Below are positions 3,503 to 20,836 of a DNA stretch of 32,000 nucleotides, piece after piece (position 1 is the first letter of the stretch; every line of letters begins with the position of its first letter). A program made the translations under genes and the position numbers. This DNA comes from Candidatus Auribacterota bacterium. Lineage in GTDB: Bacteria > Auribacterota > UBA6266. Location of the stretch: contig JAGLRQ010000079.1 of assembly GCA_023136205.1 (NCBI GenBank), positions 1 to 32,000 of the forward strand, read 5' to 3'. Under the pieces are notes generated by a model. It ran no database searches and had not been told where the DNA came from. It was given only the letters and a program-made list of their open reading frames with translations.

Positions 3503-3645
3503 TAGAAAACCTTGCTTTTATGACTGTTTAGGTATATATTACCAATTTAAGGCACTACTCAATGAACCGCAATACGACTATAATATACCTAATATGGCAG
3601 GTTGTGTCAAGAACTTTTTTATATTTTTAAAAGAGGCAGATTATT

Positions 3646-3849: not shown

Positions 3850-3886
3850 AAAAATATCGTTTATATTTCCGAAAAAGAGGTTCTGA

Positions 3887-5477: not shown

Positions 5478-5572
5478 GCAAAATTTTTCTATCAAACTAT
5501 TTTAAAAAGCTACAAATTCTTTTTAAAATACAAGGATTTTTTCACTCAATAAATTTCTGCTACAATAACCAC

Positions 5573-5773
5573 ATGAAAAAGCGAACCCTCTTAATAATCA
5601 CTTTAGTATGCTGCCTCTTAACCGGATATGCTTTTTCTTCAGATGTAACTGACCTTTCCGGGAAGAAATATTTCCCAGCAGTAAAGGAAGCCATAGATAA
5701 TTCAGAGAAATCTATATTTATGGTTGTGTATATTGTGGACTTTGATGAAAGGGTGATGAGCGACAATTATAAT
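5573..5773 (+). pseudogene. 5' fragment of a secreted PLD/Nuc-like gene, truncated by the IS
   Basis: Signal-peptide-like N-terminus followed by YFPAVKEAIDNSEKSIFMVVYIV, which resembles the first conserved block of Nuc-type PLD proteins. The reading frame runs into the IS end. Confidence 0.4.
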
Positions 5774-7398
5774 TACCAGTCTCATTGCCTCAAGAAGAAA
5801 TGTTACCATTAGTTACAACCTGCGTCTACACCAATTGGGGCAACTACTGCCTGTCCAATATTTTTATCTAAACATGAATACACTAACTGCTTTGCCATAA
5901 TCTGCCTCCACTCCTGAACTCGCCGTTGCAGAGTTCTCAATTGACCATCTGTGAATTTTCCAGGATGATCTTTCTGAAGCCGTTCAAATAACAATTTAGC
6001 AGTAGTATCAGGTTCACTTTGTAGCCATTGGAGTACATCGGGCCAAACTTTTTCGAATGGATTTTTCCGCGTTCTCCAATAATGAGGTTTTGTTATAGTT
6101 TTTTGATGTGTTGGACGCACCTCGCCAGAATGCCAGAGTTGTGGTAGTTGTGCAAGAAATTGCTCTAAGCTATTTCGACCCGGGCCAGTGGATTCATTCG
6201 GAGAAACCAAAGCAGCTAATGCGGCTTGGTCGTCTCGTATACGATGTAGTAAATACACGGGGTCAAGTTCTTTGCGCTGCAATTGGAGTTTTTCCTTTGT
6301 TGATTGCATGACAGTAGGGTTGTTACACAAACGCTCACAAGGTGTCATCGGTTTGTCATACAATCGCTTGACCTTGGATCCTTCTCGCTTCTTTTCTCGC
6401 AATTTGAAGGAAGGCTGGTAATAATTTACATAAAACCTAACCGCTCGGTATAGATGAGCAAGTGCTTGACCGGCTACGACTCCTGAAAAACGCTCATATC
6501 CAACAAACCGCCGTATCACCGCCCCATTCTTTTGTTCGATCCAAGCTTGGTCATTTGGGCAAGACGGTCGTGATCGAGTAAAGTCAATGCTATGATTTTT
6601 GCAATATGAAAGTAGCGTATCGTTGATAAAAGCACTATCGTTATCAGAGTCGATTCTTAGAATGGGAAATGGTAGTTGCTGTCGCAGTACCTCAAGTCCC
6701 TCCACCACAAGGGATTGTTCTCTCGCCAGAAGCGGAATACACTCGACCCAACCTGAATATATATCTGTTGCAACAAGGCTGTGGATAAAAGAACCGGCCA
6801 TGGATCCGCCACCGTGCACCACAAAATCGATTTCTAAATATCCTGGAGATGGTTCATTCCAATCTGCAAATGTATGGACAGGCACTTGCGCACTGACTTT
6901 ATTTGGCTTTCGGCGACGTTTTCTACGTGAACATCCCTGTTTCCGAACATCCGAAAGCAACCGGTCGAGAGTTGCTGCGCTGGCTAAAAGTAGTCGTCGC
7001 CTCACCTCTGGGTCGAGTTCTATATGACCGTGACGTTCCATCGCATCCACTAAATTAGGCAATATAGCCTTTAGTCTCTTACCGCAAATTCGATCTGCGA
7101 CTTCCCAAGTAACAATTAATGCTTCTCTCACAGCTTCGTTGTAAATGCGTCTGCTTTTGGTAGGTTTATTATCAAAGCCTGCCAGATTTCTGTTTCCAAG
7201 CAGGCGAGTAGCGTGTTTTCGGTGATATCCGGCAACCGCAACAAACTCGTCCAATATCCTCGCCTTTTCATTTTTTGGAGCCTTTATATAACGATTTCTC
7301 AGGACTTCCAAGAGTTCATTTCTTGTATGCTTACTAATTTTTTTCCCCATTTTTTGCCTCCTGATTTTGGTAACATTATCATGAGGCAACGACTGGCA
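5774..7398 (-). mobile_element. IS element (about 1.6 kb) with imperfect terminal inverted repeats
   Basis: Left end TACCAGTC..TTGCCTCA..AATGTTACCA versus the reverse complement of the right end TGCCAGTC..TTGCCTCA..AATGTTACCA. A single rve-type transposase fills the element. Its GC content is clearly higher than the surrounding island. Confidence 0.7.
5809..7350 (-). CDS. DDE (rve/integrase-core) transposase; IS family not resolved by eye (ISNCY/IS481-like)
   Basis: N-terminal HTH region (ILDEFVAVAGYHRKHATRLL). Catalytic core LEIDFV...IDSDNDSAF...NDQAWIEQKNG. A strong AGGAGG lies 6 nt upstream of the ATG at 7350; the track ORF starts at 7389. Confidence 0.85.
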   Translation of the reverse strand: MGKKISKHTRNELLEVLRNRYIKAPKNEKARILDEFVAVAGYHRKHATRLLGNRNLAGFDNKPTKSRRIYNEAVREALIVTWEVADRICGKRLKAILPNLVDAMERHGHIELDPEVRRRLLLASAATLDRLLSDVRKQGCSRRKRRRKPNKVSAQVPVHTFADWNEPSPGYLEIDFVVHGGGSMAGSFIHSLVATDIYSGWVECIPLLAREQSLVVEGLEVLRQQLPFPILRIDSDNDSAFINDTLLSYCKNHSIDFTRSRPSCPNDQAWIEQKNGAVIRRFVGYERFSGVVAGQALAHLYRAVRFYVNYYQPSFKLREKKREGSKVKRLYDKPMTPCERLCNNPTVMQSTKEKLQLQRKELDPVYLLHRIRDDQAALAALVSPNESTGPGRNSLEQFLAQLPQLWHSGEVRPTHQKTITKPHYWRTRKNPFEKVWPDVLQWLQSEPDTTAKLLFERLQKDHPGKFTDGQLRTLQRRVQEWRQIMAKQLVYSCLDKNIGQAVVAPIGVDAGCN

Positions 7399-7399
7399 C

Positions 7400-7966
7400 T
7401 TGGCAACAAAAGTTATGAGTCAAGGCGATGATGAGATTGTTATCATAGGAAGCACAAACTGGTCTAATTCAGCCTTAAGAAGAAACAACGAAACCTCTGC
7501 CCTTATAAAATCCAAGGAGCTGGCAAAATCTCTTCTTACAAACTTCTTCCATATCGCCATTGATTATGAGGCAAGTAAATCAATTCATCAAAAAGCTTCT
7601 CCCCTTGCAATATGCAGATATTTTTTGGAAGACTCCGATCTGGCAGGTAGAATGATGACTTCCCGCGATGAAAGAGCCTTTGATGTATATCTCTTGCTCC
7701 TGAAAGATAACCTTGCAGAGTCAGGGTTTAACTATAACAAGATAGCCTTGCAATTGGGTTTAGACAAGAAAATGGCTGTGAATGACTATAGAAGACAGAT
7801 CAACAAGACCTTAAGAAAGCTTGAGAGCCAATACAACTTAACGGACGAGTACGGAAAAGAGCAAGTCCCAGAGGCATTTGATATAGTTTCCCAAAAGGCG
7901 ATAGACAATCCCAGAAAAACTTATAAATATGTCGTGGGGATTTTGAGAAATGCTGCAGTCCCCTGA
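7400..7966 (+). pseudogene. 3' fragment of PLD-like gene (HKD-motif tail) with a C-terminal helical/wHTH-like extension
   Basis: DDEIVIIGSTNWSNSALRRNNETSALI matches the D(x)6GSxN...N.E half of the PLD HKD motif. No canonical HxK remains, and there is no proper start. Confidence 0.55.
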
Positions 7967-8055
7967 AATAAGTATTGTGTTTCCGAAATTCCTTTTAGAA
8001 GGCGGAGAAATGCTTGATCTATGTTAAGATGTTTCTATAAAATGAATTATGTATT

Positions 8056-8217
8056 ATGAATAACAAAAAACCCGGACTCATAGAACGATTCTTTGCCTGG
8101 TTGTTTGAGCTAGTGAATGATATTGTTGAAGATGCAACCGACTCAATAGCTGAGAAAGTAGTGGGAAAAATGAAAGAAGAGCAGTTTTTGGAAGGAAAAG
8201 ATAAGGAAAACGAATAG
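8056..8217 (+). CDS. Possible small ORF (53 aa, acidic), absent from the supplied track
   Basis: ATG 8056 to TAG 8215-8217 (MNNKKPGLIERFFAWLFELVNDIVEDATDS...), just upstream of the sce7726-like gene. No clear RBS. Confidence 0.2.
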   Translation: MNNKKPGLIERFFAWLFELVNDIVEDATDSIAEKVVGKMKEEQFLEGKDKENE

Positions 8218-8263
8218 AAAATAGGTGTCCGTCTATCATTTCACTCATTTTGTCAAAAATATC

Positions 8264-8896
8264 ATGGATAAAGCAGAGCAAATTAAAACTGAAGCTATCA
8301 AATGGTTACTTAAAGGAAATTTATCCTTTAAATCCAACAGGGATGCGATTGGGACAGAAGTCCTTTTTTCTGTAAAGAGGAGAAAGGCTGATTTACTAAT
8401 TCTTTCTACCAATACCCATGCAATTGAAATAAAGAGCGATTTCGACAAGCTTGACAAATTAAAAACGCAATTACAAGATTACTACAATTCATTTGATAAA
8501 GTATCGGTCATAACTACCCTGAGACATGTTTGCAATATTAAAAAAGTTTTATCCCCAAAGGCTGGCTTAATTATTTTTGATAATGCATCTTTCAAAGTTT
8601 TAAGAAAAGCAAAGCGACAAAAACGATTAAACAAAAGCTCATTATTAATGTTCCTGCCAAAAGATGAATTAACCAAAATATATAGGGCACCAAGAGGTCA
8701 ACGACTTTCCGTAACAGAAATACGTATGAGGATTAAGAACCAATTAAATGCGGACGAAATCAGGGAAAAAGCTTTCTCGCATTTAAAAAAACGATACAGA
8801 AAGCTTTTTGAATTATTCCTACATGATACCGCTGGCATTATAATCTGGGATGAGCTTCGGGGGTTATCTGGTAAGATCAATAAGTTGCATGGTTAA
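8264..8896 (+). CDS. sce7726/MmcB-like protein (PD-(D/E)xK nuclease fold)
   Basis: GTEVLFSVKRRKADLLILSTNTHAIEIKSDFDKLDKLKTQLQDYYNSFDKVSVITT fits the E...(R/K)ADL...EIKS.D....L..Q...Y...FD pattern of that family. Start taken at the ATG at 8264; the track starts at 8225. Confidence 0.55.
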   Translation: MDKAEQIKTEAIKWLLKGNLSFKSNRDAIGTEVLFSVKRRKADLLILSTNTHAIEIKSDFDKLDKLKTQLQDYYNSFDKVSVITTLRHVCNIKKVLSPKAGLIIFDNASFKVLRKAKRQKRLNKSSLLMFLPKDELTKIYRAPRGQRLSVTEIRMRIKNQLNADEIREKAFSHLKKRYRKLFELFLHDTAGIIIWDELRGLSGKINKLHG

Positions 8897-9975
8897 AAGA
8901 GATTATTCCTGAGAGTGATGTAAATATTCATTCTGATTGAAATCCAAAAGGAAGGTGAAAGCCCTTGCGGATATCCTTCTGATGCTGATTCAATCTGTTT
9001 AATGCCCCAACAATTTCTTACATTATTTTTTGTTCTTCTATATGCCTTTTTACCAACAATCATTTGAGCAACTCTTTTGTAAGCATCAGCGTAAGTTCTT
9101 TCTATATTACTTCTTCTTGAACGATGATAAAATATCTGGTTTTCCGTCGGAACGTCAATTCTTGGTATCCACCCATTCCCGCCGGCCTGATCACTCCTAA
9201 CTGGATGAATGGAAGCATAATCACTATAAACAATTTCCTTGTCGATGTTATCATTTACCCGAGTATAAAATTCTACTTCCTCAAGATTAAAAGTCCCATC
9301 ATCTTCGCCCCCAAATTCCGTTGGATTTTTAGGGTATGAGGTTGCAGATAAAACAAGCTTTTCAATGGAATAGTTTTCCAATTCTTTAATTAAACTTTTT
9401 GCCTTCGTTGCGTTATCTTCGGCTTTACCTTGTGTTATAAACCCGAAGTCCATAAGAACAATCAGCTTACTAATTAAGAGCGCCTCGTTAATAATATCGA
9501 GATCGTGTTTATAGTCTGGGTAATCTGCGGGGAAACGATAAACGAGAGATTCAAACTTCCCATCTAAAGCCTCTACCTGTTCTTTTAATCGTTCATTATA
9601 TTCTTTCTCATTAGAAACATCTTTATCGGATATTTGAATTGTGGGAATTATAGAAGGGAAATCTTCTTGAAGTTCTGTCACCAATGTAACCCATTTCCCA
9701 TAGCCCTTTGTAGTAGTTTGCAACCCTTCAATCTGTTCATTAATTAAATTTGGTTCTGTCGTTAAATCAAGAATAAAGCACCTATCCTCAAAAACTTCTT
9801 CCAATTTTCTCAACCTTCTGTAGATATCACCACCTTCCAAGTATTTCGTCCTTCGAGATTTTGTTAATTCCACTAACGGCGTGATCTTATCTTTCACATC
9901 ACTGGAAAGATTTTTTAAAGCTCTAAGTTCAGCGTCGGTCGTCTTAATTATTGGAATATAAGTAATATCGCTCAT
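8893..9975 (-). CDS. Beta_protein-family (PF14350-like; sce7725-like) protein
   Basis: The N-terminus YIPIIKTTDAELRALKNLSSDVKDKITPLVEL matches the family's Y.P.lK...gE..AL..L.....i.PL.E opening, and the size fits. Overlaps the ImmA gene stop by 4 nt. Confidence 0.55.
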   Translation of the reverse strand: MSDITYIPIIKTTDAELRALKNLSSDVKDKITPLVELTKSRRTKYLEGGDIYRRLRKLEEVFEDRCFILDLTTEPNLINEQIEGLQTTTKGYGKWVTLVTELQEDFPSIIPTIQISDKDVSNEKEYNERLKEQVEALDGKFESLVYRFPADYPDYKHDLDIINEALLISKLIVLMDFGFITQGKAEDNATKAKSLIKELENYSIEKLVLSATSYPKNPTEFGGEDDGTFNLEEVEFYTRVNDNIDKEIVYSDYASIHPVRSDQAGGNGWIPRIDVPTENQIFYHRSRRSNIERTYADAYKRVAQMIVGKKAYRRTKNNVRNCWGIKQIESASEGYPQGLSPSFWISIRMNIYITLRNNLF

Positions 9976-10523
9976 AAACCATGTCCTGACATTCCTAAAC
10001 TTTTTGCTCTTAGTCGCACAGTCAAAGTAGAAACCTTAAAGAATCTTGCCAAATCTTTAATTTCCTTAACCCCAGACCGTACTTGTTTTTTAAATTTATA
10101 TTCAGGCATTAATATTTCACTAGCAAATTCGTTAGCCTGCCATTCTGATCTTTTAGATTCTCCACCTCTAAAAAAAATCTTATCCTCAAAAATATGGCTT
10201 AAATGTTTATGCTTACAAAAATGACCTAATTCATGAGCAATTGTATATCTTTGCCTGTTGGGATGATGATAAGTATTCACTTGTATTCTCCATTGTCCCG
10301 ACTCTTCATCATAAAAAAGCTTGCCAGAAAGATCATCACTTAACTCAACAAACTCCACCCTAATACCAAGTTTTTTAGCTAAGTCTTCCACGTCCAAAGG
10401 GTCGCAATTAACTTCATGGGCCTTCGCGAAGCGTATCAATTTATCTGCAGTATCAATTAAAGCAATATCATTCTTATTGGCTTCTTGTCGGGTTAAAAAT
10501 ATTTTACGTCTTACTATTGCCAT
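9972..10523 (-). CDS. ImmA/IrrE-family (COG2856, peptidase M78) zinc metallopeptidase
   Basis: HEXXH motif in IAHELGHFCKH, followed by EWQANEFASEILMP, the typical ImmA/IrrE downstream block. No fused HTH. Confidence 0.85.
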   Translation of the reverse strand: MAIVRRKIFLTRQEANKNDIALIDTADKLIRFAKAHEVNCDPLDVEDLAKKLGIRVEFVELSDDLSGKLFYDEESGQWRIQVNTYHHPNRQRYTIAHELGHFCKHKHLSHIFEDKIFFRGGESKRSEWQANEFASEILMPEYKFKKQVRSGVKEIKDLARFFKVSTLTVRLRAKSLGMSGHGL

Positions 10524-11162
10524 TTAGCCCTTCCTTTTCTTTGGAAAACTCTGGCCTCTCAGGTGTTTCCTTCCCTGATGCGGCGCATCTGTATCCTTAA
10601 CTTCATCATAACTTCTTGCATTTAATGTTTTTTCGAGAAATTCAATTCTATCTTCTAGGTTAAGCACTTGCATTAATTCATCCGAATTTTTAAATTCTGT
10701 AAATTTCATATCTATAATATTTTTTAAAATAATCTGAAATGATTCACTACACTCCAAAGCCTCATTAGCCAACTCTCGAGCTTGGTGTCTTGATGAAAAA
10801 TACACATACATAAAACTAACAGCCATTAAAACACCAATAACACTTAATAATAATGTTATTATAAGTTCATAAAAATCTGTTATTTCTTGAGTATAAAATT
10901 CCAATGAATGGTTATATTTACTCTCGGTTAAAATTGCTCCTTTTTCTTGTTGCGGGCTCGGAGTTTTTATTTGTAATTCTTTGAGGTCTTTTTCATGGAC
11001 ATTTGTATTAACTGTCTGTTCTTCTTGAGTTTTTAGAGATTCTGAAGCCAAAGAAGGTGTTACATTCAGGAAATATCCCATAAACATAGCATATGTTACG
11101 CTGATCAAAAACAATACAGTGCAAAACAATATTTTCGATGAATATTTCTTTTTCTTATCCAT
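10524..11162 (-). CDS. Two-TM membrane protein, first gene of the ImmA/Beta operon
   Basis: TM segments ILFCTVLFLISVTYAMFMGYFL and LIITLLLSVIGVLMAVSFMYVYF, with a basic C-terminal tail. The stop codon abuts the ImmA start with no gap (10524/10523). Confidence 0.6.
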   Translation of the reverse strand: MDKKKKYSSKILFCTVLFLISVTYAMFMGYFLNVTPSLASESLKTQEEQTVNTNVHEKDLKELQIKTPSPQQEKGAILTESKYNHSLEFYTQEITDFYELIITLLLSVIGVLMAVSFMYVYFSSRHQARELANEALECSESFQIILKNIIDMKFTEFKNSDELMQVLNLEDRIEFLEKTLNARSYDEVKDTDAPHQGRKHLRGQSFPKKRKG

Positions 11163-11470
11163 TAAGAATCCTTAATATATGTGTTTATTGAGATTGTCAA
11201 TTATTTAACTATTATAATCACTAGTGTCTAATTAAGAAATGTTCCATTTACGTAAGGTGTTAATATATTGATAGCAACAACAAAATTTAGATTTTTCGAC
11301 TTGAAACGATTTTTGTTAAACCATTTTTTGTTCCGACGACATAGACGATAACATACACACCCTAACCATCTAATAATATTACACGCGATCTTATTTAGCA
11401 AGAAATCTTAATGGCCCCCCTTTGTTGTAACCACTTTTCTTTCATGCTAAAATATCTAAATGAGGGAATA

Positions 11471-12352
11471 ATGAGTTTTGATTTCAATCCAAATATAAGA
11501 AAGTTTTCATTTAAAAATGCTTTAATACTCGCTGAAGCATCGGAATTAGCCTACAAATCACGAGCGGAATATAAAAAGATTCTTAAAGAAAAGTGGGGAT
11601 TCTCGGATATTTACCCCCTGGATAAAAATGAGACCCAGGGTTTTGTTGCAAAGAAAGAAGATATGATATTAATTGCTTTTCGGGGGACGGAAGAAACAAA
11701 GAATGAAGATATATTTACAGATATACTGGCGTGCCAGACAAAAACAGAACTGGGAAAAGTCCATTATGGGTTTTTACGGGCCCTTAAAGCTGTCTGGAAG
11801 GACGTGCTGACAACAGTTAAGAATTATCAGGACAATAATCAGCCTGTATGGATTACAGGACATAGCCTGGGAGGGGCTTTAGCCGCCCTTGCTTCCGCCA
11901 AGCTCGCATCAATAAATGCATGTCAAAAGATTACCGGGGTATATACATTTGGACAACCAAGAGTAGGAGATAAAAACTTCAAAGAAAATTTTGAAAGGTT
12001 ACTTCCAGGCGGAACCTATAGAGTTGCCAACTTTAAGGATCCGGTTACTCTGGTGCCATTGAATATTAATTTAAAAATATGGGAAAAACGCATAATCTTT
12101 CAATACGATCATGCGGGTAAAATTATATTGTTTAATGAAGCCGGGGAAATAGCTGAATCCGGTGATTTGGTTACGCGATGGGTGTTAATTTGGGTAGCTG
12201 TTTTAGGTTTTGTAGTTGCGTTGATTGTAAAAATGTTGAGAAAAATGAAATTAGCAGAGGGATTGTTAAAATTGTTTAAAAATCCGGCAACCCCGCATGG
12301 GCTAGATCAATATAAAGAAAATATTATTAAAAATTTAGCACACAACAGGTAA
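11471..12352 (+). CDS. Class-3 lipase family alpha/beta hydrolase with C-terminal TM helix
   Basis: Nucleophile elbow GHSLGGALA; AFRGTE and FGQPRVGD blocks typical of Lipase_3. C-terminal WVLIWVAVLGFVVALIV. GAGGGA RBS before the ATG at 11471. Confidence 0.8.
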   Translation: MSFDFNPNIRKFSFKNALILAEASELAYKSRAEYKKILKEKWGFSDIYPLDKNETQGFVAKKEDMILIAFRGTEETKNEDIFTDILACQTKTELGKVHYGFLRALKAVWKDVLTTVKNYQDNNQPVWITGHSLGGALAALASAKLASINACQKITGVYTFGQPRVGDKNFKENFERLLPGGTYRVANFKDPVTLVPLNINLKIWEKRIIFQYDHAGKIILFNEAGEIAESGDLVTRWVLIWVAVLGFVVALIVKMLRKMKLAEGLLKLFKNPATPHGLDQYKENIIKNLAHNR

Positions 12353-12374
12353 AATAAGAAAAATAATACTATTT

Positions 12375-13826
12375 TTATCTTTTTTGAGCTTTCTTTTGAT
12401 ATTCTTTTTGTCTGAGGATTAGCTCATCTGATGAAAAGCATATATCGAGTTCGTCTTCGTGTTCTAATAGCTGCGAAGAAATAAGAAAGTTATACTGTCC
12501 ACCATTGTCAGACTGGTTTGCTCCAACACTGTAGATTTTCCACGAGCCGTTTTCCCCGATATATTTGAAGGGTTCATTACCTTTGCTGAATGGATCTTCA
12601 GGTATTTTATCTATATACTCAGGGGACAGTTCCAATAAAGAAGCAGGCGGGTTTCCGTTGTTTTTATCCTGGTAAAGTCTCACTGCCAGAAATAACGCTG
12701 TTCCTCTCAGGTTAGCTAAATGACGGTTGTAATATGAAAGGGCATTATTAAGTGCCGGAATGTGCAGAGACACAAGCATTCTGCCTACAGGGTCGCCGGA
12801 AAATAACATTAAAAAGGGATGCTTTGCATGCTTTTCAATATATTGCAGAATTTCTGTGTTAAAGCGGTCCGGATCATACGGACCTGATGCTATATCGATT
12901 AAATGGGAATATACTGCATCAAGGGTTTGATTTATTTTTTCAGGCGTGCTCCCAAGAGCATCTGCTACCGCTTTTCGCATAGATATTTTACCGGAATGAT
13001 TGACGTTTTGTTCTTTTAAATCAGCTATCAACAACCATCCTGCCGGGAAGGTTTGATTAACTTTAAAGATTGCGAGCTTTGTTGTATCTGTGATATTTTT
13101 GGCTGCCATACGCTCGTATCGTAATACCTCGGCAAAAGGCTCGTTTTTTTTATCAATCTGTCCAACCATTGATATCATAGAGTTTAAAACGCTTTCAGGT
13201 GCCTTATGTTGGAGAACAACCTTTCTCATGCTCTGGCATGCCACATTAGTGCATACTGTATCAACAAGGTAGTTGATAAGACATCCGCCGCGACTCAAAT
13301 GGTCTCCTACAATAAGCATTGTTTTGTAGCTGTCTAAAACAGATTGCCAGTTCCCTTTTGCAGCATCCCTTTCAGCTATAAAAGATAATACTTTAACCTT
13401 GTCACGGATGGGAGAGAGATAAGGAAGCAGTGTTTCAAAAGATATGGCGGTAGCAACCTGGCATTCCTGTATTTCTGCAGCTTTCCTGCAGAGTGCAACC
13501 TCATCAGCATTATTATCAACCCATTTTTCAAGAAGAGGATACTTTCCTTCTTCCCACTCGTATGCAACAAATCTATCATATTCTTTGCTAGCCTCTCCTA
13601 TTTCATTGTCACTGCTGTTTATTTGCCGGATATAATAAAATGCATTATCTTCCGTGATATCCTCGTCGTAAAGAATGGGGCGTGAAGGCTCAAGCTGGAC
13701 TTCAGCCAGAAGCTTGGGCCAGGGCAGCATGTTTCTGCAAACCACAAACAGAGATATAATAGATATAATTAATATTACGACAATTTTCAGAATTGTTTCT
13801 AAAATTACTTTAAGGACATTTTTCAT
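12375..13826 (-). CDS. N-terminally anchored hypothetical protein (about 480-500 aa)
   Basis: Long ORF with a TM helix (IVVILIISIISLFVV) and no recognised domain. Alternative ATG at 13883. Confidence 0.55.
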   Translation of the reverse strand: MKNVLKVILETILKIVVILIISIISLFVVCRNMLPWPKLLAEVQLEPSRPILYDEDITEDNAFYYIRQINSSDNEIGEASKEYDRFVAYEWEEGKYPLLEKWVDNNADEVALCRKAAEIQECQVATAISFETLLPYLSPIRDKVKVLSFIAERDAAKGNWQSVLDSYKTMLIVGDHLSRGGCLINYLVDTVCTNVACQSMRKVVLQHKAPESVLNSMISMVGQIDKKNEPFAEVLRYERMAAKNITDTTKLAIFKVNQTFPAGWLLIADLKEQNVNHSGKISMRKAVADALGSTPEKINQTLDAVYSHLIDIASGPYDPDRFNTEILQYIEKHAKHPFLMLFSGDPVGRMLVSLHIPALNNALSYYNRHLANLRGTALFLAVRLYQDKNNGNPPASLLELSPEYIDKIPEDPFSKGNEPFKYIGENGSWKIYSVGANQSDNGGQYNFLISSQLLEHEDELDICFSSDELILRQKEYQKKAQKR

Positions 13827-14019
13827 TTTATATAATCTGTTCTTTAAGGTGCTTAAAAAAACGAGTAGGGTAATAAATACCATATATACATGTTCGGGTC
13901 AATATGGATAGGAAGATTTGAAAGGAGATATAAAAAAAGGAAGAAAAAACAGGAGGTTTCTCACATCCCAATTTCTCTCCTAAAAAATTAAATCACTAAC
14001 CCCACCCCCAACATTTCTT

Positions 14020-14049
14020 TTGACCTGAGACATATAATTGTTTCATAAT
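14020..14049 (+). promoter_or_regulatory. Candidate sigma70-type promoter for the repeat-protein gene
   Basis: TTGACC (14020-14025), 18-nt spacer, CATAAT (14044-14049), about 45 nt upstream of the ATG at 14092. Such matches occur often in AT-rich DNA. Confidence 0.3.
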
Positions 14050-14091
14050 ATGCACAGTTGTTATAAATATTCCCGAGGACACAGGAAAAAA

Positions 14092-15093
14092 ATGAAAAAG
14101 ACTGAAAAAATAAAATATGAAATTGACCCGCATAACAGGCTCATCTTCACAAAAACAGGAAGAAAGTCAAAACTCCCCAAGTACAGAGAAGTTATTGACG
14201 GCAGAATCAAAATAGATAAAAACAACTCTTTTATCTACCATGTAAAGCAACCTCAAGATTCTAAACTTCCCCAACAGGTTAAATTTTCGGGGAAATGGTA
14301 CTTAAATAAGAATCATGATCTTGTACTTACCTTAGATAAGAAACATAAGATGTATGCCGGAGATAAGCTCACAATAAAAGGGGAGATAAAAGATGCAAAA
14401 GCAAATAAGCTAGTGTTCTCTGTTGCAGCAAAAGATATTTTGAATCAACCTCGGGAATATATCTTAAACCTTAGCGGCAGTTGGCAAGCTGACAAATATA
14501 ACCGTCTGACATTCAACGTAAAAAGAAATAAAGGCATAACAGACATATTAACTTTTAAAGGTGGCTGGAGCATTAATAAACAGAATCAGATTATATATAC
14601 TTATGAGAAAGCACATTTAAAAACCAAGAAAAGGGTAACTAAGACTATAAACTTTAAAGGGCATTGGAATATAACGGAAAAACACAGAATTTTATACGTT
14701 TTAAATAAAAAAATAGATTCACAATTTGATTTTAAGGTAAGTCTGGGAAAACCGCTTAAAAGAGGGCTTCAATATAAAATAGGGATAGGAAGTGTTCCTT
14801 CTAAGGAAAAGATAACTCTCTTTGGGGAATGGAAGGTAAATAGAAGATTAGGTGTTTTGTTTGAAATGCCGTATGAAAAAGGAATCCTTCAAAGGATTGT
14901 TTTTGGAGCAAGCTGTAAACCGGGTAAAAACAGCACTATTGAGTTTAAACTGAGAAACGAACTAGGAAAAGATCTGGGAATGGATATTAAGCTTTCAAAA
15001 AAAATACTAAAAGATCAGGGTGAGATTTTCCTGCGCGCTATCACATCAAAAAAAGAGAAGCAATTTTTAATCGGCGGTGGGTGGAGATGGTAG
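14092..15093 (+). CDS. Lys-rich protein built from at least 7 degenerate beta-hairpin-like repeats; function unknown
   Basis: Recurrent unit h-x-G-x-W-x(2,3)-[ND]K-x-N-x-L-x-F/Y-x-h: FSGKWYLNKNHDLVLTL, LSGSWQADKYNRLTFNV, FKGGWSINKQNQIIYTY, FKGHWNITEKHRILYVL, LFGEWKVNRRLGVLFEM, plus weaker copies. AGGA lies upstream of the ATG at 14092. Confidence 0.6.
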   Translation: MKKTEKIKYEIDPHNRLIFTKTGRKSKLPKYREVIDGRIKIDKNNSFIYHVKQPQDSKLPQQVKFSGKWYLNKNHDLVLTLDKKHKMYAGDKLTIKGEIKDAKANKLVFSVAAKDILNQPREYILNLSGSWQADKYNRLTFNVKRNKGITDILTFKGGWSINKQNQIIYTYEKAHLKTKKRVTKTINFKGHWNITEKHRILYVLNKKIDSQFDFKVSLGKPLKRGLQYKIGIGSVPSKEKITLFGEWKVNRRLGVLFEMPYEKGILQRIVFGASCKPGKNSTIEFKLRNELGKDLGMDIKLSKKILKDQGEIFLRAITSKKEKQFLIGGGWRW

Positions 15094-15266
15094 CAAACAA
15101 ATTCCGGTGATACAATACCCCATTACCCAAATATCTTCTCCCTCTTATTTTTGCAACAAAAAATCGTTCTACCCCGGGGGTGAAATGGTTCCGTTTATAT
15201 TAATTTTTCCCCTTGATTTCAATTTGGTTTTATTGTAAAGTCGTCCCGCAAAGAAGGAGATATAGC

Positions 15267-15785
15267 GTGGGAAATGCAGAGGCAGAAGAAAAACTAGTAG
15301 AAGCCCCTAAATTATCGGTAAAACCTATAGAGGCTCAAAAAAAAGAGCCAGAAATGGCTATAGAGGGTAAAAAGTTTTTAACACCAGTAACTGGTAAGTA
15401 TACAGATGAAATTATAGAAGAAGTGGCCAAAATATCTATAGATGAGTTAGATCAACCAGGTGGGTGGAAAAAGTTGCTTATTGCAATGTATAAAGAAAAA
15501 GCTTATGAAAACAGAACACTTCAGGACAAGGTTAATGCATTAAATATTACAAATTCTGATTTGGGTAAAAAATTAGGAGTGGCCAAAGAAAGGCTTCGGC
15601 ACACAACTGGTGTAGGAGTCGCGTTTGGGATTTTATATATAATTGCGGGAGCTATGTTAGCATATCTGGCCTCTTTGCCAGATAGTTTAATTAGGACAAT
15701 ATTATTTTGGTTGGCAATAGGAATATTTGTAGTGTGTACTGGTTATCATCTTTGGAATAGCAAAAAGCAAAAGGATGTTGAATAA
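15267..15785 (+). CDS. Hypothetical protein: charged/coiled N-terminal region plus two C-terminal TM helices
   Basis: AAGGAG lies 7 nt upstream of the GTG at 15267. TM segments GVGVAFGILYIIAGAMLAYL and ILFWLAIGIFVVCTGY. Confidence 0.5.
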   Translation: MGNAEAEEKLVEAPKLSVKPIEAQKKEPEMAIEGKKFLTPVTGKYTDEIIEEVAKISIDELDQPGGWKKLLIAMYKEKAYENRTLQDKVNALNITNSDLGKKLGVAKERLRHTTGVGVAFGILYIIAGAMLAYLASLPDSLIRTILFWLAIGIFVVCTGYHLWNSKKQKDVE

Positions 15786-15799
15786 ATGGAAAGCTTAAA

Positions 15800-16189
15800 A
15801 TGAGTGAATCAATAATTGGTGCTTTTGAGATAATTGGGATAAGAGATGCTGGTAATCTGGCAGAGGAAAGAGTATTGTTCCGAGCGATAGAGCCTGTATC
15901 ATTAGAGTATTATGTTGTTGTTAATGTGAAAACGACTAATGGAAATAAATTAATTATTCTTAATGATAAAATATTTTGGTTCCCAATTATGTCTGTTAAT
16001 CCAGGCGAGTTTGTTAGGTTATATACCAAGAGTGGTTCATATGCAAAAACAACATCGACATATGGTCAACTACCCGCCACATATCATAATTATTATTGGG
16101 ACTTAAGTGCTCCTATATGGGATGGTGTGAAGTCTAACGCAGTTACTATCTTTAAGGTGAGCAACTGGAACACCGCATATCAACCTTAG
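15800..16189 (+). CDS. Small soluble beta-rich protein, possibly lamin-tail-domain (LTD)-like
   Basis: Starts 14 nt after the previous gene. The pattern EERVLFRA...YYVVVN...FWFPIMSVNPGEFVRLYTKSG...IWDGVKSNAVTIFKVSNW resembles LTD strand order. Assigned by eye only. Confidence 0.35.
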   Translation: MSESIIGAFEIIGIRDAGNLAEERVLFRAIEPVSLEYYVVVNVKTTNGNKLIILNDKIFWFPIMSVNPGEFVRLYTKSGSYAKTTSTYGQLPATYHNYYWDLSAPIWDGVKSNAVTIFKVSNWNTAYQP

Positions 16190-16247
16190 GAAGAGAAAAA
16201 TAATTACTTCATTACTATAAAGCCAGTTGCGAAACTCGTCTTACAAG

Positions 16248-16480
16248 TTCCAGGAACACAACACCTAATCACCCAAACAACCCCTCCCTCACACAAACCT
16301 CAAAAACATCATTCCTCAACCTAATTTTCTTAATTTGAGATTTTGGTATCCAGATTTTCTCCACATTTTCAACCAAAATTGCCTTTTCAGTTTCGTGGAG
16401 TATTCTACCCTGAACCCAGATATATTTTGGTTTTGGATATAACAGTCTGTAAACATTTAAGGAAAAAGGAGTCAGCACCC
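16248..16480. repeat. Direct repeat copy 1 (about 225 bp, roughly three-quarters identical to 18253-18475)
   Basis: Nucleotide similarity spans the 72-aa gene and continues about 20 nt past its stop (TTCCAGGAACACAACACCTAATCACC versus TTCCAGCGACACAATACCCAATCACC). Confidence 0.7.
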
Positions 16481-16487
16481 TTTTCAA
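16269..16487 (-). CDS. Small conserved hypothetical protein, paralog A
   Basis: About 75% identical by eye to ORF 18274-18477 (YIWVQxRILHETxKAILVENVEKxWIxKSQIxKIRLRNxVFEVxVREG). Confidence 0.6.
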   Translation of the reverse strand: MKRVLTPFSLNVYRLLYPKPKYIWVQGRILHETEKAILVENVEKIWIPKSQIKKIRLRNDVFEVCVREGLFG

Positions 16488-16624
16488 ACTATTAGTAATT
16501 TGCTTACCAATTTTATAAGTTCATGTTTTTCTGCATATTTTGTTCAAATGGGCGAGAATTAAACATAAAAAAAGCGATGATTTATTCTCTTCGCTTTTGT
16601 TAGACAGAAATTAGCCTTGTATAG

Positions 16625-16810
16625 TTATGCCTGTAAGCTCTTTTTTTCTATTGAGTCGCGGAACTTTTGAAAGTTAATTCCATAATCGTAATGTTCTAAA
16701 TCTAGATGATCCCTATTAATCCACAAACAATCTCCCCATACACACCTTTCAACACCAGTGAAGGAATCATACTCTACACCAAATCTTTTACATTTTGGAC
16801 ATCTTTTCAT
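16625..16810 (-). CDS. Small zinc-ribbon protein (CPKC...C..C)
   Basis: MKRCPKCKRFG...ERCVWGDC; 61 aa; lies 54 nt downstream of the deaminase gene on the same strand. Confidence 0.45.
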   Translation of the reverse strand: MKRCPKCKRFGVEYDSFTGVERCVWGDCLWINRDHLDLEHYDYGINFQKFRDSIEKKSLQA

Positions 16811-16864
16811 TCCTTCTCCTATAATTAATTATACGTATACAACTATAATAAGCAAGTTTTTTAA

Positions 16865-18145
16865 CTATAAATTTCTTTTAAAAAACCTATGAAATGATTT
16901 TGTTGTAACCCCTTCATATTTCTTAAGGTCCACATTGTTGGTTTTAAACATATCAATAGCTAGAGATTCTTCCATTGGATATGCTTCTAAATATACGACT
17001 TGAATAATACCCGAAGCGATAATTTTTTTACAGCATAACATACAGGGGAAAGCAGAAGTATATAATTTTGTTCCATGCAATGATGTGCTTCCCAATCTGG
17101 CAGCTTGAATAATTGCTGCTTCTTCAGCATGTACAGCCCTGCAAACACTCAATAATTTCCCAGGAAAAACTTCGTTTTTAAAACCACAATCTACACATAA
17201 CTTGCTATTCTTTTCTAATTTATGCCCACATTTTCTACAATATATATTATTTTCTAAAAACTCTTTCTTTATTTTGGCCCGATAACATTTTTCAGGGTAT
17301 TTTTTCTTACAATCTTCGTCTTCGTAAGGGACATTATTGCAACCGGTGGCAATTACATATCCTATAGCGCCCTTCAATTTTTCTTTATCAAGTTCTTTTT
17401 TAAAAGAGTAAGTATCGCGAACTATAACTGCCCCTACTTGCCTTTTGGAACATCTTGATTGCAAAGCTACACTGCAGGCTTGGTGCATATACGCCTCATT
17501 AGGGTAAGGAGGCCTACTCTCAGAATTTTCTATGAGATCATAAAAATCGGATAATCTCTGTGCATAACTATCAATAATCTTACCATTTTTTGTCCCATCA
17601 CAATCAAAAAAATCTTCTTCTGCATTAACAGAAATATCTGCCATTTCCATGCATTTTTTTACTTGTTGCCCATGTAGATTTTTCGTATCCCCGGCGTCCC
17701 GTTTTTCAATCTCACCAAACTCGTCTTTATGTTTAAACAAATCTTTTAATCTATCCCATCTTTTGTCATGGGATGCATCAATAGATAATAAAACAAAATG
17801 TTTTTTAAATTTTCTTTGAAAAGTTTCAATTTCATGTGGATTTCTGAAACATTCAATTACAGCTTTTTTGGGCTTTCTTTTGCATATTTCTTCAACTATT
17901 GGAGCTACAGTTTCGGGGTTTTCAGGGTTCTTTTTTCTTAATTCATCACCTAAATCTTGTAAAATCATTCTTTTTTTATTGGGTTGTTTCTTATCAAAAT
18001 CTTTGACTTTTTTTTTCGCTTTTTCTTTCAACAATGCTGAAATACTAAAATATTCCATTCCTTTGGTATTATGAAAGAACTTACTGGTTTCAGTGCAACC
18101 AGATCCAAATCTTCCGGTTAATCCAATTATCATTGTATCTTTCAT
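16865..18145 (-). CDS. Nucleotide-kinase-like P-loop domain fused to a CMP/dCMP-type zinc deaminase (architecture of defensive dCTP deaminases)
   Basis: N-terminal GLTGRFGSGCT P-loop. C-terminal SKRQVGAVIV...GCNN...HAEEAAI...PCMLCCKKI deaminase motifs. A CxxC...CxxC insert (CRKCGHKLEKNSKLCVDCG) lies before HAE. Confidence 0.8.
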   Translation of the reverse strand: MKDTMIIGLTGRFGSGCTETSKFFHNTKGMEYFSISALLKEKAKKKVKDFDKKQPNKKRMILQDLGDELRKKNPENPETVAPIVEEICKRKPKKAVIECFRNPHEIETFQRKFKKHFVLLSIDASHDKRWDRLKDLFKHKDEFGEIEKRDAGDTKNLHGQQVKKCMEMADISVNAEEDFFDCDGTKNGKIIDSYAQRLSDFYDLIENSESRPPYPNEAYMHQACSVALQSRCSKRQVGAVIVRDTYSFKKELDKEKLKGAIGYVIATGCNNVPYEDEDCKKKYPEKCYRAKIKKEFLENNIYCRKCGHKLEKNSKLCVDCGFKNEVFPGKLLSVCRAVHAEEAAIIQAARLGSTSLHGTKLYTSAFPCMLCCKKIIASGIIQVVYLEAYPMEESLAIDMFKTNNVDLKKYEGVTTKSFHRFFKRNL

Positions 18146-18252
18146 TTATTTATATTTATTTTCAAAATAGAGATGGAGACTATTCTCCCTTAACATCCAA
18201 ATCAAGGATTACACTATCAAATTAAATGTGGTTTTGCAAGGTGTTGTTGTAA

Positions 18253-18475
18253 TTCCAGCGACACAATACCCAATCACCAAAACTTTCCCTCCCGAACATA
18301 AACCTCAAAAACACCATTCCTCAGCCTAATTTTCCGGATTTGCGATTTCGATATCCAGGTCTTCTCTACATTTTCAACTAAAATAGCTTTATCGGTTTCA
18401 TGCAAGATACGGATTTGAACCCAAATATACCCGGGTTTTGAGTGTAACAGCCTGTAAATACTAAAGGGTCTAAAC
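18253..18475. repeat. Direct repeat copy 2 (partner of 16248-16480)
   Basis: See copy 1. The two copies are offset by about 2005 bp and bracket the deaminase and Zn-ribbon genes. Confidence 0.7.
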
Positions 18476-18477
18476 AT
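18274..18477 (-). CDS. Small conserved hypothetical protein, paralog B
   Basis: Paralog of 16269-16487. Starts 4 nt after the stop of the HTH ORF. Confidence 0.6.
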   Translation of the reverse strand: MFRPFSIYRLLHSKPGYIWVQIRILHETDKAILVENVEKTWISKSQIRKIRLRNGVFEVYVREGKFW

Positions 18478-18481
18478 AAGC

Positions 18482-18679
18482 TTACACCCCCTTCCACTTA
18501 ATAGCGCGTTGGACTGTTTTACTGCTCACTCTCAGGGATTTGGCTATTTGGGTGCAGGTCATGCCCAGAAGATGTAATTCTGTGGCTTTCTGGGCTATTT
18601 TACGGTATAAAGGAAAGGCTTTAACAGGGAGAATTTTAATACAGGCAGAGATTTCGGAAAAAGTTCGAATTGGTTGCAA
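18482..18679 (-). CDS. HTH module (resolvase/invertase-type); probably the detached 3' segment of the recombinase gene
   Basis: LLGMTCTQIAKSLRVSSKTVQRAIKW is HTH_7-like. There is no ATG; the first codon (TTG) sits exactly at the island-end inverted arm. It is in frame with the LSR once the ends are joined. Confidence 0.5.
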   Translation of the reverse strand: MQPIRTFSEISACIKILPVKAFPLYRKIAQKATELHLLGMTCTQIAKSLRVSSKTVQRAIKWKGV

Positions 18680-18712
18680 CCGGGTCCGCCATTTTAACCA
18701 CTTCGAACCTTT
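18663..18712. repeat. attR region: inverted arm GTTCGAATTGGTTGCAA (18663-18679) plus right copy of direct repeat (18685-18712)
   Basis: 18663-18679 is the exact reverse complement of 1508-1524. 18685-18712 (TCCGCCATTTTAACCACTTCGAACCTTT) matches attL at 25 of 28 positions. Confidence 0.7.
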
Positions 18713-18748
18713 ATTTCGGCAGTATTAAAAAAATGGGGACACATTGGG

Positions 18749-20605
18749 CTAGCCTACGGGTACCTGATTATTTGCAATATATTTTCTGATAATTTCTATA
18801 AATTCATCGGCGTAGGATTCTAATTTTTTCTCTCCTACACCAAAGATCTTCGCGAAAGCCTCTTTTGTAACCGGTTTTATTAGAGCCATATCTCTTAGTG
18901 ACTTATCTCCAAAAATGATATATGCGGGGACTCCTTCATCATGAGCCATTTCCGACCTTTTTTCGCGTAATGACCGGAACAATTCTTTATTTACTCCTTC
19001 CCAATCTTTTTCTCTTTTCTGTTTTCGCTTCGCCGCGACTTGTTTTTTCTTCGCGGTTACCAGCGGTTTTGTCAAAACAGGAACTATTTCTCCTTTCAGA
19101 ACCTGTTTTCCCGATAATGTCAGGGATAGTGTTGAAAATTCTTCATCTCTTCGCAAAAAGCCCTGGCCCACCAACTGTTCAACCATATACCTGATAAAAG
19201 TAATTGATGACTCAGCCATTATGCCGAAAGTAGATAAGAGCTGATGATTCATGCGGTTAACCTGATCGGTTGTTTTCCCTTTTAAAACATCGGCTACGCA
19301 GGATGCTCCAAACCCGAAGCTTTTTCCCCGGCTGACTCTTACAACACACGATATAATTTTTTGAGCTGTGACCAATGATTCTTCAACCATTTCAAGCTCA
19401 TTTAAACAGTAGTCACATGCCTGGCAGGAGGGTTTGTCATAATCCTGTCCGAAATAGTTTACAAGAAATCTATGCCTGCAGTGAGGACGGGAGCAGAAAT
19501 TATAGAGGATGTTTAGTTTATCCATCATAACCTTTTCATGAGGTGATGTTTCTATGAAGGACCTCATAACCCGGTAATCCCCGCCTCCGAAAAACATGTA
19601 GCAGTGTGAGTTAAGCCCGTCGCGCCCGGCACGCCCGGTTTCCTGATGATAATGTTCAATACTTTTCGGCATCGCGGCATGGATAATAAACCGGATGTTA
19701 GAGCGGTCAATTCCCATGCCAAAGGCAATGGTGGCAACAATTATATCAACTTCTTCACGGATAAATTTGTCCTGGTTTATATGCCTGGTAGTGTCAGAGA
19801 GCCCGGCATGGTATGGAACATTCTTAAACCCGAGCGTATTCAGTTTCTCTGAAATATTTTCGACGTCTTTCCTCCGCAGACAATAGATAATCCCCGGTTC
19901 ATCCGGGTGTTTTTCTAAAACGTCTGTTATCTGCTTTATTAAATTTGAACGGGGTATCACCCTGTAGGATAAGTTTGGGCGGTCTATCTGCCTGATATGG
20001 ATTTCAGGATTATTAAGCTGCAGCTGTTCCAAAATATCCTGCTGTACCGCTACAGTAGCCGTAGCTGTAAAAGCATGAACACAAGAGGATTTGAATCTTT
20101 CCTTGATAAACTTCAATTTGCGGTAATCTTCTCTGAAATCGTGTCCCCAATGGCTGATACAATGGGCTTCATCAATAACAAAAAACGCGGGGTTAACTGA
20201 TGTTAAGAGGTTGATGGTTGATTTTTGCTGAAGGCGTTCCGGAGAAATATATAAAATTTTCACCTTCCGTTTTCTAATAAGGCTAATTTCTGTCATTTGT
20301 TCTTTTGGTGTCAGGCTGGAATTCAGACAGCTTGCTGTAATCCCCTTTGCTTTAAGGTCATCAACCTGGTCTTTCATTAATGATATCAGCGGTGAAATAA
20401 CTACAGCCATACTTCCTTTTAACAAAGCCGGAAGCTGAAAACACAAAGACTTCCCTCCTCCCGTAGGCATAACCGTCAATGACTCTTTTTCTCTCAGTAT
20501 TGATAAAATTACATCTTCCTGCAAAGCCCGAAATGATGTATAGCCCCAGTATTGTTTTAAAGCTTCATACATGGGTTTCTGAAACCAATCCGTTTTTCCG
20601 CTCAT
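18749..20605 (-). CDS. recQ: ATP-dependent DNA helicase RecQ
   Basis: FRALQEDVI, TGGGKSLCFQLPAL, DEAHCISHWGHDFR, a Zn-binding Cys cluster, and a C-terminal HRDC-like segment (PAYIIFGDKSLRDMA). The ATG at 20605 is preferred over 20647. Confidence 0.9.
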   Translation of the reverse strand: MSGKTDWFQKPMYEALKQYWGYTSFRALQEDVILSILREKESLTVMPTGGGKSLCFQLPALLKGSMAVVISPLISLMKDQVDDLKAKGITASCLNSSLTPKEQMTEISLIRKRKVKILYISPERLQQKSTINLLTSVNPAFFVIDEAHCISHWGHDFREDYRKLKFIKERFKSSCVHAFTATATVAVQQDILEQLQLNNPEIHIRQIDRPNLSYRVIPRSNLIKQITDVLEKHPDEPGIIYCLRRKDVENISEKLNTLGFKNVPYHAGLSDTTRHINQDKFIREEVDIIVATIAFGMGIDRSNIRFIIHAAMPKSIEHYHQETGRAGRDGLNSHCYMFFGGGDYRVMRSFIETSPHEKVMMDKLNILYNFCSRPHCRHRFLVNYFGQDYDKPSCQACDYCLNELEMVEESLVTAQKIISCVVRVSRGKSFGFGASCVADVLKGKTTDQVNRMNHQLLSTFGIMAESSITFIRYMVEQLVGQGFLRRDEEFSTLSLTLSGKQVLKGEIVPVLTKPLVTAKKKQVAAKRKQKREKDWEGVNKELFRSLREKRSEMAHDEGVPAYIIFGDKSLRDMALIKPVTKEAFAKIFGVGEKKLESYADEFIEIIRKYIANNQVPVG

Positions 20606-20836
20606 TTTCGCGCAGACTCCAATAAATTTATCAGCCCGTAAAATCATACAATATCAGATGTAACTTGTACTCTTTCTATCAACTTAAATCAAGCACATTT
20701 GAGATACTATCAACATTTTCAGGGTGGCCTGACCACTTTTAATATGGGGTTAATAAAATAATAAAATGGCTTGACACAATTCAAGGATACGCACAGAATA
20801 ATATTAACCAAAGACAAAGCCCATGGAGGAAGTTTC

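Follow-up and report, generated by a model that had tools for sequence, protein, structure and literature searches.

Diverged small genes around a deaminase gene as probable end-markers of a serine-recombinase island at tRNA-Ser in a Candidatus Auribacterota bacterium

Large serine recombinases (LSRs) such as those of phiC31, Bxb1, A118 and SPbeta carry Resolvase, Recombinase and Zn_ribbon_recom domains together with a coiled coil, and act on short dyad-symmetric attachment (att) sites in which the outer motif of attB half-sites lies about 5 bp nearer to the centre than that of attP half-sites (PMC11722253). According to a database paper of 2014, no serine recombinase with a tRNA gene as its target was known (PMC4383910). 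In the tandem tRNA islands of Islander, a single tRNA gene is occupied by several neighbouring elements or remnants with repeated boundary sequences between them, the marker being a tRNA fragment and the enzyme a tyrosine integrase (PMC4383910). An att site inside the recombinase gene has been described for the SSV1-type ('suicidal') tyrosine integrases, which were regarded as exclusive to archaea and whose gene is split to opposite ends of the element by integration (PMC8371274). Here we analyzed a window of 32,000 nucleotides (nt) from a Candidatus Auribacterota bacterium (assembly GCA_023136205.1, contig JAGLRQ010000079.1, positions 1 to 32,000), in which two direct repeats, each with a gene for a small protein of about 70 amino acids (aa), bracket a deaminase gene. 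A first-pass annotation had taken this arrangement as a cassette that could be gained or lost by homologous recombination between the repeats. We give a probability of roughly 0.65 to a different explanation, in which the repeats are the diverged, paralogous last genes of a conserved end-module belonging to LSR islands at tRNA 3' ends. The deaminase gene is then most likely cargo between two end-markers and not a cassette moved by the repeats.

The LSR gene of the window (1493-3196, minus strand, 567 aa) runs into the gene of tRNA-Ser(UGA) (1420-1507, plus strand), the putative integration target. Its product matched the Pfam domains Resolvase (8.7e-29), Recombinase (8.7e-24) and Zn_ribbon_recom (4e-9), and residues 431-469 gave a weak, sub-threshold coiled-coil-like match (DMPK_coil, E 0.007). 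The domain content thus agrees with that of the known LSR elements, as do the short dyad-symmetric att sites with a 5-bp shift of the outer motif between P- and B-type half-sites. The locus differs from them in that the target appears to be the 3' end of a tRNA gene, that attP would lie inside the recombinase open reading frame (ORF), so that integration would remove a C-terminal helix-turn-helix (HTH) segment of 65 aa, and that no directionality factor was identified. An att site within the recombinase gene and a gene partitioned on integration are shared with the SSV1-type integrases. In those, however, a tyrosine recombinase gene is disrupted, whereas the enzyme described here is a serine recombinase from mostly bacterial bins that would lose its C-terminal HTH appendage alone, with the catalytic and DNA-binding domains left intact. 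A literature search for serine integrases whose own gene contains attP gave the archaeal tyrosine case alone; its coverage was incomplete, and such an integrase may therefore already be reported. Like the Islander arrays, the loci studied here appear to hold elements and remnants side by side, but the repeated marker would be an attP-like site with an HTH/small-gene module.

A repeat search of the window returned one long repeat family, formed by positions 16248-16462 and 18253-18467, which are 215 nt long, 77% identical, directly oriented and spaced by 2005 nt. The direct repeats with paralogous genes about 2.0 kb apart that the first-pass annotation had described were thereby confirmed. Each repeat comprises most of a small minus-strand ORF and about 23 nt past its stop codon. 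Copy 1 (16269-16487, minus strand) encodes 72 aa from a TTG codon, the aligned start being a GTG at 16478, and appears to have lost the upstream HTH ORF and att site. Copy 2 (18274-18477, minus strand) starts with ATG and encodes a protein of 67 aa from an uncharacterised small beta-barrel family. The two proteins are 76% identical. The DNA similarity extends past the stop codons, as had been noticed before, with 78% identity between 16246-16268 and 18251-18273, and then drops to about 48%. At the other edge it fades at about 16460-16497, with the homology break near 16497. The repeats enclose exactly the deaminase gene (16865-18145) and a 61-aa Zn-ribbon ORF (16625-16810), also as first reported. 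In addition, a stub of 43 nt (15100-15142, minus strand) retains the last six to seven codons of a third copy, its stop codon and the following tail.

Comparison of 61 aligned codons of copies 1 and 2 revealed 20 synonymous and 13 non-synonymous codon differences, with 13, 7 and 23 differences at codon positions 1, 2 and 3. The ratio of non-synonymous to synonymous substitution rates (dN/dS) was about 0.10 (NG86) to 0.21 (LWL85), and dS was 0.7-1.4, a level at which synonymous sites are saturated. The longest exact run common to both copies measured 14 nt. Copy 1 was nearer to the copies of two related loci, L004 and L005 (81% identity), than to copy 2 (76.5%), and a neighbour-joining tree placed copy 2 outside the group of copy 1 and the L004/L005 copies; the two L004 copies paired together. 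The saturated synonymous sites, the short exact run and the closer relationship of copy 1 to copies of other genomes indicate that copies 1 and 2 are old paralogues, which are predicted to be poor substrates for homologous recombination.

In related loci, the small gene forms part of a conserved module made up, in this order, of att half-site P', HTH coding segment, 67-aa small beta-barrel gene and a 25-nt repeat, referred to below as box B. Two to five copies or fragments of the small gene were present in 15 of 36 loci, always with one orientation per locus and at distances of about 1-6.6 kb. Many of them were decayed, by truncation or frameshift. The genes beside the small gene differed in every one of 39 related loci. 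They included an acetyltransferase with a PALP enzyme, ABC-F, restriction-modification systems, Fic, a PLD nuclease, DUF4062, a C5 methylase with a HATPase protein and an OLD-TOPRIM/UvrD pair. None of the 39 had a homologue of the deaminase or the Zn-ribbon ORF, nor of the two ORFs that lie downstream of copy 1. One locus (L005) is about 90% identical to the window in the tRNA flank and the recombinase, yet its cargo is entirely different. In L035 (140-713), the 3' end of a transfer-messenger RNA gene is directly adjoined by a frameshifted small gene with its box B, with no cargo between.

Based on these features, we concluded that positions 1507-18690 of the window probably constitute a serine-recombinase island at tRNA-Ser, with an att arm, the HTH ORF and the small gene as its distal end. 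The LSR gene is located at the tRNA end, while the HTH ORF and small gene copy 2 are located at the far end, adjoining recQ. The G+C content of the island is mostly about 0.30-0.36, with local exceptions such as an inserted rve element, compared with 0.37-0.44 in the flank from about 18.5 kb.

The tRNA end carries a hybrid att site (1480-1528, minus strand). Its P arm (1508-1528) coincides with the 3' end of the recombinase gene, its centre (1496-1507) with that of the tRNA and its B' arm (1480-1495) with the tRNA T-arm. At the distal end, a palindromic att-like site (18660-18712, minus strand, centre 18680-18691) shows P-type spacing on both arms. A total of 34 sites combined the centre TGGCGGAC(C/G)CGG with the arm TTGCAACCAATTCGAA, all of them on the gene strand and directly at the HTH start. 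The arm after the centre is TTGCAACCAATTCGAAC, the codons of which read LQPIRT. Where the LSR gene abuts tRNA-Ser in the window (1496-1528), L005 and L042, its 3' end consists of the mirror arm AAAGGTTCGAATTGGTTGCAA followed by the centre, and a remnant of this was detected in L037. Several of the HTH-start sites are preceded by the mirror arm ACAAAGGTTCGAATTGGTTGCAA and thus make a perfect palindrome. On the P and P' arms the motif GGTTCGAA is located 16 nt from the centre, while GGTTCAAA of the tRNA T-arm is located 11 nt from it (window, L005 and L042); the motif GGTTCRAA stands at 16 nt on the P arm and at 11 nt on the B' arm. Since the outer motif is 5 bp closer to the centre, the tRNA arm was read as an attB-type half-site, and the tRNA-side site is a clean P-B' hybrid. 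The proposed attP, joining P and P', would be ACAAAGGTTCGAATTGGTTGCAATGGCGGACCCGGTTGCAACCAATTCGAACTTT. A left flank of the form CGGCTTCGAG(T/C)CCC..GGATA(C/T)(C/T)AAA was common to the HTH and small-gene units of L002, L008, L009, L015 and L019. This flank lies 30 nt upstream of the att centre and resembles the 3' end of a forward-oriented tRNA; it may indicate a second recombinase subfamily or target.

The HTH ORF (HTH_23, 65 aa, 18482-18679, minus strand) ends 4 nt upstream of copy 2, and its first six codons are the P' arm. A tblastn search found it ahead of the small gene, with a gap of 3-4 nt, in nearly all of more than 35 loci. The HTH segment is under purifying selection, to judge from a median dN/dS of 0.20 over 413 pairs, while in codons 1-6 the third positions are conserved along with the first two, as would be expected of a DNA site. 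A start codon at the beginning of the HTH segment was absent in about a quarter of the copies. In junctions where both arms are preserved (L010, L025 and L027), the reading frame of a recombinase C-terminus remnant is kept across the centre (..KGSNW..WRTR) and leads on to LQPIRT and the HTH segment. When a virtual recombinase-HTH fusion was used as the query, most homologues covered 88% of it and ended at the att site, and two natural read-through LSR-HTH proteins covered 98%, namely P0124 (625 aa, L040) and P0181 (671 aa, L041). In L040 the read-through ORF is followed by the small gene, which is interrupted by a small inverted-repeat insertion. This insertion of about 390 nt (about 5690-6080) is bounded by GGGCATAATACTCAAAAAGTGTTGCT and its complement as terminal inverted repeats, in the way of a miniature transposable element. 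The junctions and read-through ORFs showed that the att site lies within the predicted LSR reading frame, which crosses the att centre. We infer that the HTH segment is probably made mainly as a C-terminal extension of the recombinase, in an excised circle or at tandem junctions.

About 90 of the 120 closest LSR homologues (P0121-P0240) had a parsable C-terminus ending in ..KGSNW(L/Y)(Q/H)WRR(G/R)(D/E)SNPR.., about a dozen ended otherwise, and the C-termini of the rest were not classifiable. The ending ..WRRGRDSNPR.. corresponds to a reverse-complemented tRNA acceptor stem and T-arm read as protein. Because most of the parsable C-termini translate reverse-complemented tRNA, the whole LSR family seems to target tRNA 3' ends. 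The islands would then belong to a large, previously undescribed serine-recombinase family at tRNA 3' ends, a target class not known in 2014 (PMC4383910), and they carry fast-changing defence cargo in poorly known phyla.

A search with a profile of both copies detected at least 168 homologues of the small protein, mostly of 64-73 aa, in metagenomes and in bins labelled Aureabacteria, Omnitrophota, Ratteibacteria, Aerophobetes, Planctomycetia, Aenigmatarchaeota and others. The copy 2 protein was identical to one of them (P0001). The family had no match in Pfam, NCBIfam or PADLOC; 103 of 105 members matched phrog_8389, a family of unknown function, copy 2 doing so at E 1e-4. No match was found by tblastn in INPHARED phages or PLSDB plasmids, and IMG/VR gave just two distant matches, both in high-G+C contigs. 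From 105 sequences, AlphaFold2 predicted a short helix followed by a five-stranded small beta-barrel, with a mean pLDDT of 77 and 85-89 in the core. The homologues, the purifying selection and the confidently folded barrel core show that the small ORFs are real genes. The first-pass annotation had named two findings that would tell against its reading, namely that the repeats were a generic intergenic family or that the small ORFs lacked homologues or coding signatures. The former holds for the tail past the stop codons, which falls into a generic extragenic repeat family as discussed below, and the latter does not hold for the ORFs, given their homologues and a dN/dS of 0.1-0.2.

These observations can be combined in the following model. 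In the excised circle, or at a tandem junction, the LSR ORF would read on without a frame change through the HTH domain, with the small gene 3-4 nt behind it and translationally coupled to the recombinase-HTH extension. Integration would sever the HTH segment and uncouple the small gene from the recombinase promoter. As elements stack and decay side by side, several end-modules in direct orientation would arise with unrelated cargo between them, each junction leaving an attP-like site, an HTH segment and a small gene, and older junctions losing parts of these. In the window, copy 2 would represent a full module, the upstream neighbour of its junction being apparently gone, while copy 1, without HTH segment and att site, and the stub at 15100-15142 would be relics of further end-modules. 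The dCTP deaminase and Zn-ribbon genes would be cargo between two successive modules, and the repeats would mark element boundaries without driving mobility. In that sense, the surroundings of the deaminase gene are indeed modular mobile DNA, as the first-pass annotation supposed, but the old and diverged repeats are most likely not what moves it.

The same arrangement could act as a state-sensing switch. With attP in the LSR frame, only the excised or junction form would encode the C-terminal HTH domain and the coupled small protein, and integration would remove both. We propose this tentatively, as a possible rather than a probable property of the family. The small protein might accordingly be an accessory or regulatory factor of the recombination module, its expression tied to the integrated or excised state; this is a best guess, held with low confidence. 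An attP inside the recombinase gene would in any case make the protein produced depend on the integration state of the element. If the switch exists, LSRs of this type would be widespread in uncultured bacteria (Auribacterota, Omnitrophota-type bins and others), and directionality or timing would be set without, or beyond, a classical directionality factor, the 67-aa protein being the state-specific factor. The split integrases of archaea would then have a bacterial counterpart built on a serine recombinase. Serine integrases are used as genome-engineering tools, and a natural state-dependent C-terminal domain with a coupled small factor would be of interest in this respect.

Several points weigh against the end-module model. 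Copy 1 has no att site, HTH segment or recombinase remnant alongside, and its proposed origin in a separate element derives from the phylogeny only. The distal site at 18660-18712, being P-type on both arms, looks like an attP or tandem junction and not a clean attL, and the true outer island boundary toward recQ is not defined. Neither an excised circle nor an empty attB was observed in the assembled contigs, which were compared without read-level data. The natural read-through LSR-HTH ORFs number two, and that of L041 lies in a complex junction. The predicted fold of the small protein is a generic small beta-barrel; Foldseek placed SH3, S1 and Hfq-like barrels on top and gave no PDB neighbour better than E 0.14. 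Many of the related loci also come from metagenome bins, and their taxonomic labels may be unreliable.

The tail past the stop codons of the small genes is box B. It occupies 18251-18273 behind copy 2 (motif to 18276; minus strand, reading GGTATTGTGTCGCTGGAATT) and 16246-16268 behind copy 1 (motif to 16271, minus strand). Two further copies, beyond those first noted, were found: one in the same orientation at 15100-15125, inside the stub at 15100-15142, and an inverted one at 7971-7990 (plus strand), directly after the stop codon of a PLD-like gene fragment (7400-7966). These four matches, with the consensus (T/G)AATTA-AGTATTGTGTCCCCGGAATT, compare with 0.18 expected by chance, and all lie inside the island. 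In the related loci, box B follows the stop codon of about a third of the small genes. It likewise stands behind PLD-like genes, members of a 326/351-aa family and other genes, on both strands (29 matches versus 5 in shuffles), and a PLD/box B junction like that at 7971-7990 recurs in L004, L005 and L018. Box A (AAAAAGGGGACGGTTCTATTTT), a second short repeat, stands after genes in Omnitrophota-type loci. It was located in L014 (3010-3023, 7005-7018 and 9127-9140), in L018 (1386-1399, 3040-3053, 3831-3844 and 5880-5893) and also in L022, L027 and L123. Box A sometimes lies about 20 nt upstream of box B, and its GGGGAC could pair with GTCCCC.

Beyond these loci, the 25-nt motif AATTAAGTATTGTGTCCCCGGAATT was almost invariant in at least 120 metagenome contigs (L044-L163) of very different G+C content, and the same box B 20-mer spans contigs labelled with very different phyla. 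There, box B often forms tandem or inverted pairs, followed by CCCCGGAATT sub-repeats. Clustering of the neighbouring genes in these contigs revealed one recurrent neighbour, a Y1 transposase of the IS200-like type (Y1_Tnp, 28.2 bits versus a Pfam cut-off of 23). Complete Y1_Tnp genes flanked by inverted box B were present in L064, L086, L147, L153 and L161, with the stop codon abutting the motif as it does in the small gene. The exact motif was absent from IMG/VR, and its string was not found in the literature searched. Six instances of box B were folded, with and without the upstream box A, and gave z-scores of -0.9 to +1.0 against shuffles. A terminator or an attC-like hairpin was rejected since the repeat folds no better than shuffled controls. 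A transposon-end model (DDE, TGT...) was rejected as well, as no DDE transposase was present among the neighbours clustered across 120 contigs.

Repetitive extragenic palindromic (REP) sequences are usually lineage-specific. Box B resembles REP/REPIN elements and their RAYT transposases in being a short extragenic repeat that occurs singly, in tandem and in inverted pairs and flanks Y1_Tnp genes in inverted orientation. It differs from them in lacking a stable hairpin and in that one 20-mer extends across contigs of differing G+C content and phyla; the conservation of AATTAAGTATTGTGTCCCCGGAATT across lineages is unusual for a REP-like repeat. From its sequence and distribution, we assign the tail to the extragenic repeats of the REP/RAYT kind, as one member of a generic family that is not specific to the deaminase cassette. 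It represents an unusually conserved Y1-transposase-associated repeat shared by very different metagenomes.

Box B could be given a larger role if small gene, box B and cargo formed units that are exchanged at box B by a Y1 (HUH) transposase, in the manner of an integron array. Box B stands right after the stop codons of the small gene, the PLD gene and others, homology between related islands ends at box B, and Y1_Tnp genes lie between inverted box B in the five metagenome contigs mentioned above. The variable cargo of the window is likewise bracketed by inverted box B copies (15100-15125 and 7971-7990), and in the window, L004, L005 and L018 the stops of the small gene and the PLD gene face the bracketed cargo. 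Against the exchange model, neither the window nor any of the 39 related loci has a Y1 transposase, box B is present in only about a third of the small-gene tails, the LSR att site is part of the repeated units elsewhere, a stable hairpin is lacking in box B, and the 351-aa ORF family adjoins box B in both relative orientations. We therefore regard exchange at box B as rather unlikely. Box B stands beside the stop of the 351-aa ORF in opposite orientations in the window and in L004, and inversion between inverted box B copies was rejected as an explanation for this. A true integron was rejected too. No tyrosine recombinase, the IntI type included, was found in a scan of 19 larger ORFs that spanned 951-20647 and stopped short of the core-like genes past about 20.7 kb, gene orientations are mixed and box B is non-palindromic.

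The two small genes might also descend from an old duplication inside a single element and be kept because two copies are useful, for example as one regulator per cargo block. Both copies have intact frames under purifying selection, and the pairing of the two L004 copies in the tree would suit such a history. However, copy 1 is without the HTH ORF that usually precedes the small gene and does not start with ATG, copies with decay or frameshifts abound in other loci, which argues against selection for multiplicity, and the tree sets copy 2 outside the group of copy 1 and the L004/L005 copies. A duplication of this kind is therefore unlikely.

Gain and loss of the deaminase cassette by RecA-type homologous recombination, the mechanism originally suggested, has in its favour that direct repeats of 215 nt and 77% identity bracket both genes exactly. 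The copies are, however, 23% diverged and saturated at synonymous sites, their longest exact run of 14 nt is shorter than efficient homologous recombination is usually considered to require, and copy 1 resembles the copies of other genomes more than it does copy 2. In many loci the arrangement recurs with different cargo and together with att sites, and no single-copy variant free of the cassette turned up in the comparison, which was made without read-level data. Recombination between the repeats thus became very unlikely, and the end-module model accounts for their position as markers of element boundaries.

The deaminase gene itself (16865-18145, minus strand) encodes a kinase-like and dCMP-deaminase protein, putatively of the anti-phage dCTP deaminase type. 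It matched the PADLOC dCTPase model at 4.2e-84 over residues 3-423, and a dCMP_cyt_deam_1 domain, a weak AAA_18 match and the zinc-binding region of deaminases were detected. The PADLOC match and the zinc-binding region are shared with the anti-phage dCTP deaminases (PADLOC dCTPase, NF041025, AvcD-like). The protein differs from them in its score against NCBIfam NF041025 (247 bits, equivalog cut-off 400), in an apparent zinc-ribbon insert and in the separate 61-aa Zn-ribbon neighbour. Because the score is far under the equivalog cut-off, the protein may be a divergent subtype. The zinc-ribbon insert occupies residues 300-323, inside the deaminase domain. The 61-aa Zn-ribbon ORF (16625-16810, minus strand) lies downstream of the deaminase gene, is likewise regarded as cargo and had no family match. 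A search of the whole window against Rfam at a permissive threshold returned the tRNA alone, with no small RNA or riboswitch near the deaminase gene or the repeats.

Defence systems with AvcD-type deaminases are reported to be held in check by a neighbouring antitoxin, and the small gene does lie on both sides of the deaminase gene on the same strand, but the suggestion that its product is a dedicated deaminase partner (antitoxin, inhibitor or regulator) present in two doses is hardly credible, since none of the 39 other small-gene loci, when their neighbours were tabulated, had a deaminase or Zn-ribbon homologue, the cargo was different each time, the constant partners of the small gene were the HTH ORF and the att site, the small protein had no PADLOC match, and a weak terminator-like hairpin (5 pairs, such matches not being enriched over shuffles) separates copy 2 from the deaminase start. 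The deaminase would then be ordinary defence cargo on an integrative island.

Next to the LSR gene, a conserved recombinase-side module (3302-3849) consists of a divergent pair, a 66-aa ORF (3302-3502, minus strand) and a 67-aa HTH_3 protein (3646-3849, plus strand). The PLD-like nuclease gene at 5554-7966 is apparently split by an inserted element, as judged from the intact gene in L005, into an N-terminal part near 5554-5753 and the C-terminal part at 7400-7966. The inserted element encodes a 526-aa rve (DDE integrase core) protein (5809-7389) and has a G+C content of 0.44, above that of its surroundings. A trio of minus-strand genes at 8893-11162 encodes a Beta_protein (8893-9975), a Peptidase_M78 (9972-10523) and a 212-aa ORF, and a class-3 lipase gene lies at 11411-12352. 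The 8893-11162 block and the lipase gene are typical contents of accessory or defence islands. The 351-aa ORF (14038-15093), with a weak lipocalin-like match, is 87% identical in its DNA to positions 8321-9301 of L004, and an 88-nt piece of its 3' end occurs a second time in that locus, at 2758-2845.

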